IMG/VR virus record: IMGVR_UViG_3300030380_005342
Coordinates: 10,026-74,025 of that record
Length of the DNA: 64,000 bases
Origin: a virus
Strand: one strand, 5' to 3'
Positions 51,603 to 54,542 of this stretch are shown one piece after another (position 1 is the first letter of the stretch; each line of letters starts with the position of its first letter). The translations under genes and the position numbers were made by a program. The notes below the pieces were generated by a model. That model had not been told where the DNA came from. It saw only the letters and a list, made by a program, of their open reading frames with translations, and did no database searches.

Positions 51603-52417
51603 AAATCGTACAAGCATTTGGATCACCATTTACTCACGATAAAAGTTCGTGCATGGGAAGTGTTCCTACTAATCACATTTGGCACTACGGAGCATGCGAG
51701 GACTCAGACATCGAAGTTTACTTGGATTATGATGTAGTGGGAGGATTTAAATCTCCATGTGAAAATAAGTTTCTTTGGCTGAGTGAATCTAAATCTATTG
51801 TTCCTCATCAATATGCTTTTGTAAGAATGTGGTATGAAAAGTTTTGCGACTGTTATAAAGCAATATTTACGGCAGATCGAGAGTTAGTTAATCTTCATGA
51901 TAAGTTTATAGAAGCACCCGGAGGATCAAACTATACATGGGTGACTCCAGATAAACGGGGTGTTCATAAAAAGTCCAAACTTGTTTCTATGATTAGTTCT
52001 GGAAAAGTTATGTGTGAAGATCATATTAATCGAAATGCAATCGCAGACAAAATGATTGAGCAAGGTGTTGACATGTTTGGCAGACTATACACACCTGTTG
52101 AAACCAAAGATATGGCACTAAATGATTATATGTTTTCTGTGACCATAGAAAATGTAATCTTATCAAATTATCAAACAGAAAAAGTCATCGATTGTTTCGC
52201 AACGGGAACTGTTCCAATTTACTTGGGGAATCCATCCATCGGTGAAACCTTTAATCCAGATGGAATTATTTTTTACGATGACAACTTTGATCTAAATATG
52301 TTGTCGGAAGATTTGTATCAAAAAATGCTTCCGGCTGTGAAAGAAAATTATGAGATATTCTGTAACATGAAAATCTCTGATGATGTGATTTTTGACAAGA
52401 TCACAAAACTACTCTAA
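51599..52417 (+). CDS. GT10-like (alpha-1,3/4-fucosyltransferase-type) glycosyltransferase
   Basis: K.K.VS.I.S, Y.FS..IEN....NY.TEK..DCF..GTVPIY.G; probable TTG start overlapping upstream stop (track ATG at 51563). Confidence 0.78.
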   Translation: MKIVQAFGSPFTHDKSSCMGSVPTNHIWHYGACEDSDIEVYLDYDVVGGFKSPCENKFLWLSESKSIVPHQYAFVRMWYEKFCDCYKAIFTADRELVNLHDKFIEAPGGSNYTWVTPDKRGVHKKSKLVSMISSGKVMCEDHINRNAIADKMIEQGVDMFGRLYTPVETKDMALNDYMFSVTIENVILSNYQTEKVIDCFATGTVPIYLGNPSIGETFNPDGIIFYDDNFDLNMLSEDLYQKMLPAVKENYEIFCNMKISDDVIFDKITKLL

Positions 52418-52420
52418 ATA
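52413..52420 (+). promoter_or_regulatory. Late promoter TCTAAATA (GT2-TPR/collagen operon)
   Basis: Overlaps upstream stop; followed by AGGAG RBS. Confidence 0.6.
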
Positions 52421-52437
52421 GAAGACAGGAGATTATT

Positions 52438-53709
52438 ATGAGCAAAAGACCAAGCGTTACATTATGCATGATCGTTAAAAATGAAGAACACATCATCCGT
52501 GAGTGTCTTGATTCTATGGTGGGAGTTATCGATAGGTACGACATCTCTGATACAGGTTCAACGGATAAAACAAGAGATGTAATTCGTGAGTGGGGTGAAA
52601 AGAATAATATTCCGGGTGAAGTGTACGATATTCCATGGAAAGGATTTGGTAAGTCTAGAACAGATGCGTTTAAAAATGCTGAGGGAAAAGCCGATTACGC
52701 TTGGGTCATTGACGCAGATGATAAACTTGAAGGTGACTTTAGATATCCCGAAGAATTTGGTGAACACGATAGTTATGCTTTAAACATTCATCGTGGTGAT
52801 TTCAACTGGTGGAGACAACAAATTTTTAAACTCTCAGCAGGTTGGGAGTATGTTGGTGTTCTCCACGAATATGCAAACGCTAAAGGTCTTCGTGACGCAG
52901 GGGGAACACCTACAGCGGGTCGTATTGAACCACATCCGCATTACCATATCGAAGCAAGAACGATGGGCGACAGAACCGTTCAGTTCGGTGATGACCAATC
53001 TGCAAAATACACCAAGGATGCTGAAACACTTATTGATTGTTTAACGAATCCAGAAAATGAAAACTATGAGCCGGATAATCTCAGATATGAGTTTTACGTT
53101 GCACAGTCTTACTTTGATGCTCAGAATATTGAAAAGGCATTAGAGTGGTACGAGAAAAGAGCGGTCAAAGGCGGATGGGACGAAGAAGTATGGTATTGTG
53201 TCTACAGAATTGCAATCTGCAAATGTCTCCTGAAAACAAGTTGGGAAGAGGCACAAGATCATTTCTTACAAGCGTGGAACATTCGACCTCATCGTGCAGA
53301 GCCTTTGTATCAACTTGCAAGAATTCACAGACAAAATGGCAATCCAAGATTAGGTTACTTGTTTGCCAAAACTGCCATGAATATTCCATTCCCGCAGGGT
53401 GATATTTTGTTCTTAGCAAATGACGTTTATGATTGGCAAATTGCTGATGAAGTTGCCTCCTCCGCTTACTATGTTGGTGACATGGTTGCTGGTCTTGAAG
53501 CATCGAATAAACTTTTGGAGGACAAAAAATTTCCAGACAGTGAAAAGGATAGAATTGTAAATAACTTTTCTCAATACGCAAAGTGGCTCGAAGAGCAGAA
53601 TGCAGCACAACAAAAAATGCAGCAAGAAATTTTAGAAAAACAAGTTGCGGAAAAAATGAAAAGAACAAAAGCACCAGCACCAAGAAGGAAAAAAAAGGCT
53701 AAGAAATAA
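52438..53709 (+). CDS. GT2 glycosyltransferase with C-terminal TPR-like repeats
   Basis: LCMIVKNE...I..CL.S, DTGSTD.T, W..F...R, DAD, Y.GVLHE; helical repeats FY.AQSY.D, A..WY.KR, A...RP.RAEP...LA. Confidence 0.9.
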
Positions 53710-54542
53710 TGGCTGAGTTTTCGTTTCCATCTAGTCCAACTTTTGGAACAACGCTTTCAATAGGCTCAAAGGAATTCACATGGAATGGATTTGGATTCCA
53801 ACGAGTTTCGTCTATCGGTCCAACGGGACCAACAGGTGCAACAGGAGCCACTGGTGCAACGGGACCAACGGGTGCAACAGGGAGTGATGGAGCAACAGGA
53901 GCAACAGGAGCCACGGGAACCACTGGGGCTACTGGAACCACCGGAGCCACAGGGACTACAGGAACCACTGGCACTACAGGAAACACGGGGACTACAGGAA
54001 CCACAGGAACTACTGGTACTACAGGAAATACGGGAGCCACGGGTGCTGCTGGCACAACAGGAACCACTGGGACTACAGGAAATACGGGAGCCACGGGTGC
54101 TGCTGGTACAACAGGAACTACAGGAACTACAGGAACCACGGGTACAACAGGAACCACGGGAAACACTGGTCCGACAGAAGCGGTTGGCATATTTACAATT
54201 CAGGCATCTTCTGGTATTTCATCAGGTAATAAATTAGCAGCATTTCACTATGTTCCATTCGCAGCGACAGTCAAAGAAGCGGCTGTTCGAACAGGTAGAA
54301 CAGGAGGGGTAACTGCTTCTTTCTTAGTTGCAAATCCCTCAACACAATTTAGTAATCCGACATCATCTGCAAGAACCCTTGCAACAGTCAACGCGGCAAC
54401 GGCAGCACATGGAGCGGAGACAACCTCTATTGCAAGTGCAGCGATTACGGCAGACTCTTATATCTACATGAAGGTTGACGGTATTTCTTTTCCGGGCATA
54501 ACTGGGATGCAGGGCTTTTTGACATATGAGAGGAATGTCTGA
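53709..54542 (+). CDS. Collagen-like virion fibre protein
   Basis: TAATG overlap with GT2; N-terminal F.FPSSP..G......FTWNG fibre-attachment-type motif; 40 Gly-X-Y triplets; globular C-terminus. Confidence 0.85.
53817..54176 (+). repeat. Collagen (Gly-X-Thr)n repeat, 40 triplets, with internal 54-nt duplication
   Basis: 37 of 40 triplets have Thr at Y and only 4 have Pro; the unit actacaggaaatacgggagccacgggtgctgctgg recurs at 54018 and 54072. Confidence 0.92.

Follow-up and report, generated by a model that had tools for sequence, protein, structure and literature searches.

Why would a marine phage carry, between two of its replication genes, a glycosyltransferase gene that runs directly into a collagen gene with threonine in the third position of almost every triplet? 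We addressed this question in a 64-kb stretch of DNA (hereafter, the window) taken from a 74-kb IMG/VR virus record, IMGVR_UViG_3300030380_005342, which is estimated to be 40% complete. The enzyme joins a family 2 glycosyltransferase domain to a tetratricopeptide-repeat (TPR) domain (GT2-TPR, 423 amino acids, positions 52438-53709), and the collagen-like protein that follows has 277 amino acids (53709-54542); both genes, like all long open reading frames of the window, are on the plus strand. The arrangement recalls SgtA (CD3350) of Clostridioides difficile, a 358-amino-acid protein with GT-A and TPR domains that is encoded immediately upstream of bclA3 and adds beta-O-GlcNAc, in an Mn-dependent manner, to Thr of the GPT repeats of BclA3 (PMC7157674). 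Judged from gene order across many genomes, enzymes of the SgtA type are genuinely and repeatedly coupled to Gly-X-Thr collagen fibres. We lean, with a confidence slightly better than even, towards reading the locus as a late-expressed virion-fibre module of a marine T4-like myophage, headed by an SgtA-type protein O-glycosyltransferase that would act on the fibre. Our literature searches on phage collagen glycosylation returned no publication on a GT2-TPR/collagen pairing in phages.

The first gene had been described, in an earlier note made from the letters of this DNA, as a GT2-TPR enzyme with a DAD motif, and the annotation bears this out. A GT-A domain occupies approximately residues 5-190, a TPR-like helical domain residues 190-380 and a coiled, Lys/Arg-rich tail residues 385-423. 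Pfam Glycos_transf_2 (PF00535) covers residues 9-100 (E 3.8e-12), and D92-A93-D94, the DTGSTD stretch at residues 38-43 and H143 are invariant among 15 diverse relatives. In the helical domain, TPR_2, TPR_14, TPR_11, TPR_12, TPR_19 and ANAPC3 match residues 192-303 (E 3e-4 to 3e-3); relatives at 52-74% identity bear precomputed TPR families, and in the hhalign comparison residues 190-336 fall on the TPR region of bacterial proteins with TPR matches above the cut-offs. The nearest solved sequences are Listeria GmaR, a flagellin O-GlcNAc transferase (E 1.2e-12, residues 4-98), and a SunS/ThuS-type chain (E 5e-3), along with the NCBIfam model SunS, and by these similarities the window enzyme belongs to protein- or peptide-glycosylating GT2 families. 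A genome scan recovered Firmicute homologues of 354-380 amino acids with GT2 and TPR domains, and hhalign of the phage-clade profile against the profile of Firmicute collagen-adjacent GT2-TPR proteins, which match SgtA in length (354-360 amino acids), spans both domains (99.9%, E 8e-35, columns 5-336). By this comparison, the phage enzyme and these Firmicute proteins are homologous over their full length. The end of the enzyme (53590-53706, residues ~385-423) consists of a Gln/Glu-rich helical stretch followed by a strongly basic tail, which is kept in two of the phage relatives (L002 and L006) and absent from the bacterial homologues; this tail might bind nucleic acid or a part of the virion. 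A role in DNA hypermodification was also considered and is rejected, given the TPR domain and relatives that glycosylate proteins.

The second gene agrees exactly with what the earlier note had counted in it, namely Thr at Y in 37 of 40 triplets and 4 Pro. Its shaft (residues 37-156, 53817-54176; Pfam Collagen, E 7.7e-18) is made of 40 uninterrupted Gly-X-Y triplets, in which the remaining Y positions are Ala (2) and Asp (1) and the X positions are Thr (18), Ala (13), Pro (4), Asn (4) and Ser (1). This amounts to 55 Thr among 120 residues, with one charged residue and no Lys (the whole protein has 10 Pro), and the shaft would be ~34 nm long if triple-helical. Since it has 3% Pro and a single charged residue, it is without the two usual stabilisers of bacterial collagens. 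A shaft-type Gly-X-Thr peptide such as GATGTTGTT is a candidate acceptor for GT2-TPR. The shaft DNA is composed of degenerate tandem units of 9, 18, 36 and 54 nucleotides, and contigs from other marine metagenomes display in-frame length variants of 9 nucleotides (one triplet) and 54 nucleotides (six triplets) at 53889 and 54053-54108; these are weak evidence of repeat variation, as they may be assembly artefacts, and assemblies also break inside the repeat.

The shaft is flanked by two distinct segments. The N-terminal 36 residues (53709-53816), a candidate virion-docking segment, carry the motif F-x-F-P-S-S-P-x-F-G-...-F-T-W-N-G-x-x-F and are 58-67% identical among close relatives; a motif of this type also starts the collagen proteins of two unrelated phage contigs (L016, L179), and the pattern occurs once in the window. 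The C-terminal domain (residues 157-277, 121 amino acids, 54177-54542) is modelled by AlphaFold2 as an eight-stranded jelly-roll (pLDDT 81, pTM 0.77) and is a candidate trimerisation and tip domain. Structural comparison with VIA-align places it closest to the tail-fibre C-terminus of phage 7-7-1 (Z 9.4) and to trimeric phage cement proteins (Z 8.2), followed by TNF/C1q, BclA C-terminal and PRD1 P5 knob domains at Z 6.5-7.5; the values for BclA (6.5), F-BclA (7.3) and TNF ligands (7.5) do not set these proteins apart from other jelly-rolls. No Pfam match to BclA_C (PF18573) was found in the collagen protein at E up to 0.01. This domain family occurs only after collagen or other shafts, and some of its members have no collagen at all.

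Thr at the Y position is usual in prokaryotic collagens (32-48%) and, because it is so common there, the signal at this locus is the pairing of the genes and not the Thr content. A Thr-rich collagen gene follows GT2-TPR at a distance of 0-640 nucleotides in 11 of the 13 close relatives among phages (50-74% identity). A tree of 160 glycosyltransferase domains, in which a third group of related GT2 genes served as internal control, separates a phage clade from a bacterial one: collagen adjacency is present in 51 of the 101 rows of these two clades and in none of the 59 rows of the third, and the collagen-adjacent rows span at least four separate phage sub-lineages. Among 80 bacterial loci, 35 have a collagen-like gene within 6 kb, 30 of them with a Thr-rich one within 3 kb; these genes are often directly downstream of GT2-TPR, and one of them (L100) encodes a BclA_C domain (E 1.8e-21). 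Even distant viral homologues on unrelated contigs (23-34% identity) adjoin very large Gly-X-(Thr/Gln) collagen genes, and on one of these contigs, the phage contig L037, GT2-TPR is found beside a 1316-amino-acid Gly-X-Thr collagen fibre with a Phage Tail Collar domain. Four GVMAG contigs (L020, L019, L022 and L023), from metagenome bins of giant viruses, bear further GT2-TPR homologues (29-32% identity) that fall in the tree group of the phage clade; the 6 kb around these contain no collagen gene.

The organization of the locus suggests a link between enzyme and fibre in expression as well. A motif of the T4 late-promoter type, TCTAAATA (52413-52420, plus strand), overlaps the stop codon that ends the preceding GT10 gene and precedes the ATG of GT2-TPR by 24 nucleotides, with an AGGAG Shine-Dalgarno sequence between them (52427-52431). 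The GT2-TPR stop codon TAA (53707-53709) shares one base with the collagen ATG (53709-53711), forming TAATG, and the collagen stop overlaps in the same manner, as TGATG (54540-54544), with the start of the next gene, which encodes a 387-amino-acid protein (p387). Both the late promoter and the TAATG overlap had been claimed beforehand, and the promoter-like motif and the overlap are both present as described. The promoter claim gains from position: of 14 plus-strand [AC]TAAATA motifs in the window (2 on the minus strand), 6 sit 15-45 nucleotides before gene starts, a zone that makes up 2.9% of the window (binomial P ~1e-6). The tail sheath and head scaffold genes are each preceded by one of these six, and the motif stands 22-39 nucleotides ahead of sheath, scaffold and three other genes. 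Because of this enrichment before gene starts, the late-promoter reading exceeds chance. A T4-type late unit is recognized by a TATAAATA-like -10 element without a -35 element upstream of late genes, together with a gp55-type sigma factor; in the window's sequence we find both the motif enrichment and a gp55-type late sigma factor gene (36014-36538; phrog_234, E 5e-56).

A second such motif, CCTAAATA (55701-55708, plus strand), is located 22 nucleotides before the ATG of the gene for a 154-amino-acid protein (p154); neither this motif nor the TGATG overlap figures in the earlier note. The sigma-70 promoter and terminator scan of the window gave no enrichment, and found neither a sigma-70-like site upstream of the GT2-TPR operon nor a terminator inside it. 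A 163-nucleotide contig from an RNA library (metatranscriptome) covers the collagen/p387 junction, weak evidence which may derive from DNA. Late expression and a virion location of the fibre are plausible. Motifs of the late type (CCTAAATA) at 48759-48766 and 40973-40980 also precede regA and a gene for a 409-amino-acid protein, in the replication region. The early gene gp43 has a sigma-70-like promoter with 11 of 12 consensus positions directly upstream (59590-59617; TTGACA, 16 nucleotides, TAGAAT).

The virus is a marine T4-like myophage. PHROG matches, through which structural and replication genes of the window were identified, mark baseplate wedge proteins (gp25-, gp6-, gp7- and gp8-like), tail sheath and tube, portal, scaffold, major head protein, UvsY, gp46- and gp47-like proteins, the gp55-like late sigma factor, sliding clamp, clamp loader and RegA; a DNA polymerase gene (gp43) lies at 59624-62122. 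The capsid protein is ~55% identical to its counterparts in OM43 phage Melnitz, Pelagibacter phage HTVC008M and cyanomyophages, and with an identity of only ~55% the phage belongs to an uncultured lineage. DNA nearly identical to the stretch under study is found in marine metagenomes of about twelve studies, and when 19 kb of the window were compared with phages by megablast, the sole match was 61 nucleotides of the polymerase. In this genome, the GT2-TPR/collagen island is placed between regA and gp43, in the replication region rather than in the structural block, and it contains further sugar genes: an epimerase/dehydratase and GT25-like, GT11 and GT10 genes upstream (49241-52417, plus strand), and a GDP-fucose-synthase-like reductase and a sugar aminotransferase downstream (56825-58971, plus strand).

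Such a position would fit another function, in which the whole sugar island, with GT2-TPR as part of it, alters the envelope of the host or a protein on its surface (lipopolysaccharide, capsule, flagellin or pilin), for instance in superinfection exclusion, the collagen being merely adjacent. The marine myophage literature assigns clusters of this kind to modification of the host cell surface (PMC12801897), and GmaR, the nearest solved relative of the enzyme, glycosylates bacterial flagellin. However, enzyme and fibre gene are bound together by the late-type promoter and the one-base overlaps, and independent lineages show the same adjacency to collagen. The enzyme is a soluble protein with a TPR domain, and among the annotated genes we recognized no flippase, polymerase or lipid-carrier transferase. 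We consider a host-surface role very unlikely. No flagellar gene is present in the window, and the flagellin substrate and regulatory context of GmaR are missing here. We set the host-surface role aside and keep to an enzyme that would serve the virion.

Where on the virion the fibre would be mounted is indicated by its relatives. A scan of viral contigs with the alignment of the C-terminal domain yielded 20 loci (L165-L184), and in 19 of them a p387 homologue comes directly after the gene with this domain; in the 20th, the contig ends first. The adjacency is independent of the type of shaft and of the location of the cassette, and its constancy suggests a partner role for p387 that is specific to this domain, as tip protein or as assembly factor. 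In eight related phages, the cassette of fibre and p387 lies directly upstream of gp25-, gp6- and gp7-like baseplate genes, with shafts of 620-1956 amino acids and up to 219 triplets. Two of these eight also have GT2-TPR in the island between regA and gp43 (L166 with L007; L176 with L006); no GT2-TPR match was found in five other records with the fibre cassette, which are 10-44% complete and thus uninformative in this respect. It follows from the scan that the protein of the window is probably a short representative of a family of tail or baseplate fibres, here beside the enzyme. Because the cassette stands next to baseplate genes in eight relatives, the fibre looks, from gene context, like a tail or baseplate fibre and not like a capsid nap. 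The "spore-nap-like" glycofibre of the earlier note is doubtful for the same reason, and we reject a nap on the capsid.

Two partner proteins are encoded downstream of the fibre. The product of p387 (54542-55705, plus strand) is a right-handed beta-helix protein according to its homologues, with Pfam Beta_helix in 3 of 14 and DUF5123 in 6 of 14, and to the nearest Atlas clusters (NosD/Beta_helix); the window protein itself has no Pfam match, and its profile against PDB sequences retrieved nothing meaningful. The p154 protein (55724-56188, plus strand; PHROG 1084/3304) is modelled as a small Ig-like sandwich of the BppU_N/T5 collar type (AlphaFold2 pLDDT 69, with Gly/Thr-rich loops of low confidence) and is a candidate fibre-docking adaptor. 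VIA-align relates it to the baseplate of mycobacteriophage Douge (Z 9.7), a T5 tail tip chain (Z 9.5) and phage necks and baseplates (Z 6.7-8.3). Jelly-roll tip, beta-helix partner and BppU-like adaptor recur together and make up an undescribed fibre module of T4-like phages. A small open reading frame, p74 (56185-56409, plus strand), overlaps the p154 stop and is conserved in type-A relatives.

Several observations weigh against a virion-fibre module headed by an enzyme that acts on the collagen. Thr-richness alone does not imply glycosylation, Thr at Y being the prokaryotic norm. All TPR matches of the window enzyme fall below Pfam cut-offs, the fold matches of the C-terminal domain and p154 are at modest Z, and a tblastn search with p154 and p387 through 50,697 records of phage isolates came back empty, hence no cultured carrier. 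SgtA is likened to the enzyme through its published description, whereas the sequence homology is to Firmicute GT2-TPR proteins. Furthermore, the constant neighbour of the enzyme is not the collagen but p154, which is found next to GT2-TPR in every one of the 13 close relatives. Two of these relatives (L009 and L014) hold GT2-TPR and p154 and no collagen gene, in records that are 13-18% complete. At yet another locus (L184, 4350-8512), a GT2-TPR of 49% identity adjoins a collagen of charged GER/GEK/GDK triplets with one Thr at Y; this fibre retains the same C-terminal domain and p387. Given the relatives without collagen and this charged collagen, GT2-TPR may have further substrates.

Candidates for such substrates can be named. 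The tripeptide context offered by the shaft, G-x-T followed by G or A, occurs 41 times in structural proteins other than the collagen, against 15 expected from shuffled sequences (maximum 25 in 500 shuffles), and 0 times in 29 non-structural proteins; as shuffling controls for composition only, we take this excess as a lead. The tail sheath (22503-24935, 810 amino acids) has 11 such motifs against 2.2 expected, all within residues 211-524, and p154 has 4 against 0.6 expected, all of the form G-x-T-G and placed in its Gly/Thr-rich loops. One could thus propose that GT2-TPR modifies other phage proteins, such as p154 and exposed sheath, baseplate and fibre domains, and that the collagen is a minor substrate or none; the invariable presence of p154, the absence of collagen in two relatives and the charged fibre would all be accommodated. 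On the other hand, the collagen shaft presents 39 motifs, far more than any other protein, the pairing with collagen genes spans bacteria and several phage lineages, and modification of other proteins is compatible with collagen as an additional substrate. We judge it improbable that the collagen is a minor substrate or none, and retain the fibre as the substrate that the gene pairing points to.

A stricter form of the same proposal was put forward in the earlier note: the fibre would form a stable triple helix only if the neighbouring enzyme glycosylates it. The composition of the shaft invites this idea, with 4 Pro and one charged residue in 120 helix positions, and glycosylation of Thr is an accepted stabiliser of collagen (Bann et al. 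2000, as cited in PMC3368898). Co-translation from overlapping genes would, in addition, let the enzyme act before trimerisation. Against it, Thr-rich hydration networks by themselves stabilise bacterial collagens, and recombinant BclA without glycosylation is reportedly still triple-helical. A phage of sea water needs less thermal stability, and the C-terminal jelly-roll can hold the trimer together. Moreover, two close relatives have the enzyme without an adjacent collagen and another locus pairs it with a charged collagen that has a single Thr at Y. A requirement of glycosylation for folding is pure inference and, in our opinion, rather doubtful; the broader reading, a fibre that is glycosylated by its neighbour whatever the effect on folding, is the one we carry forward.

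We hypothesize the following sequence of events for a glycosylated virion fibre. The gp55-type sigma factor would start late transcription at TCTAAATA, and a single mRNA would probably carry GT2-TPR, collagen and p387, whose frames overlap by one base. By homology and gene pairing, the GT-A domain, with its DAD motif of the Mn-dependent type, is predicted to place a sugar on the Thr hydroxyls of unfolded Gly-X-Thr chains, while the TPR domain may hold these still unfolded chains during transfer. By analogy with SgtA, the sugar would be an N-acetylhexosamine (HexNAc) taken from a UDP-sugar, and it is by this analogy alone that the enzyme might be called a priming glycosyltransferase. The jelly-roll would then trimerise and nucleate the ~34 nm triple helix, as suggested by its fold and by an architecture like those of BclA and PRD1 P5. 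The 36-residue N-terminus would dock the fibre on the tail or baseplate, perhaps via the BppU_N/T5-collar-like p154, and p387, given its near-invariable adjacency, may act with the jelly-roll tip. More speculatively, the glycan could add stiffness, hydration and protease resistance to the Pro-poor and uncharged shaft.

The neighbouring genes allow the scheme to be extended further. The epimerase/dehydratase, GT25-like, GT11 and GT10 products encoded upstream could extend a glycan, and speculatively the three glycosyltransferases would do so on the one laid down by GT2-TPR. In its widest form, a widespread marine T4-like lineage would build its own glycocalyx: the SgtA-like enzyme would prime Thr of Gly-X-Thr fibres and of G-x-T-G/A loops in sheath and p154, and swappable GT25, GT11, GT10, GDP-fucose and amino-sugar genes would extend the primers into strain-specific, possibly fucosylated glycans. 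We offer this idea tentatively, as possible rather than probable. The GT25-like gene itself (50143-50838) has a weak Pfam match (E 3e-4) and is kept in the island of many relatives; the GT25 family includes animal collagen galactosyltransferases and the glycosyltransferase domain of Mimivirus L230, and the shaft in the window is without Lys. Elsewhere in the window, a nucleotide-sugar dehydrogenase gene (47541-48398) interrupts the row of clamp-loader genes, and a NodU-type carbamoyltransferase gene (37593-39266) stands between the gp47- and gp46-like genes.

Sugar genes of marine phages are usually read as tools for modification of the host surface or of phage DNA, and glycosylation of virion proteins has so far been documented mainly in mycobacteriophages. 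GT2-TPR and the collagen are predicted to be a specific, testable enzyme-substrate pair, within an enzyme family that has thousands of metagenomic relatives. If our reading is true, the glycosylation system of spore collagens extends to viruses, stiff fibres made from Pro-poor and uncharged collagen shafts can be explained, and there is a way into the question of how phages of the ocean adjust their stickiness, resistance to proteases or recognition. If the glycocalyx idea were also true, the surface chemistry of the virion would be, beside the sequence of receptor-binding proteins, a variable trait in ocean phages.

Several known systems can be compared with the locus. Mimivirus L230 glycosylates the virus's own collagen-like proteins, e.g., L71 (PMC9614988), a virus-encoded enzyme for collagen-like proteins of the same virus, as we propose for the phage pair; however, L230 combines a GT25-type domain with a lysyl hydroxylase in one protein and puts glucose on hydroxylysine, whereas the phage enzyme is a GT2-TPR protein acting presumably on Thr. 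Mycobacteriophages encode glycosyltransferases that modify their own structural proteins (Freeman et al. 2023, in passages citing it), but the targets named there are C-termini of capsid and tail-tube subunits, and those passages describe no collagen shaft or TPR enzyme. Listeria GmaR and SunS/ThuS, the nearest solved glycosyltransferase domains, are likewise GT2 enzymes acting on proteins or peptides and not on polysaccharides; they differ in their substrates, flagellin or glycocin peptides, with no such gene nearby, and the similarity is limited to approximately the first 50-100 residues. Structurally, the jelly-roll tip is similar to the knob of PRD1 P5 (Z 7.1), and p154 resembles a T5 tail-tip chain (Z 9.5), the Douge baseplate (Z 9.7) and BppU-type domains as in TP901-1, at sequence identities to these phage proteins below 20%. 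We know of no glycosylation of the PRD1 P5, T5 collar or TP901-1 BppU fibres.

Two further comparisons are with spore collagens. BclA of the Bacillus anthracis/cereus exosporium nap is built, like the phage protein, from a short anchor at the N-terminus, a Thr-rich collagen shaft whose repeat number varies, and a jelly-roll of ~120-135 amino acids at the C-terminus. The phage model matches the latter at Z 6.5 (F-BclA, Z 7.3), and the BclA shaft is O-glycosylated. The phage protein differs in being without Pfam BclA_C, in a fold match that is no better than those to TNF/C1q or to phage cement and fibre domains, and in belonging to a collagen family with phage tail-module context. In the pair SgtA/BclA3, as in the phage pair, the enzyme has an N-terminal GT-A/GT2 domain and a C-terminal TPR domain. 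Its gene runs in the same direction as, and directly into the position before, a Gly-X-Thr collagen gene whose product has a shaft with a further domain at either end. The phage enzyme is longer (423 amino acids with a basic tail vs. 358) and its setting is a phage and not a spore; the phage collagen has Thr and Ala at X instead of Pro, a C-terminal domain other than BclA_C and, in p387 and p154, extra partners. With these differences stated, the analogy to SgtA and BclA3 drawn in the earlier note holds, and it does so through the homology of the phage enzyme to Firmicute GT2-TPR proteins that have the published size, architecture and gene position of SgtA.

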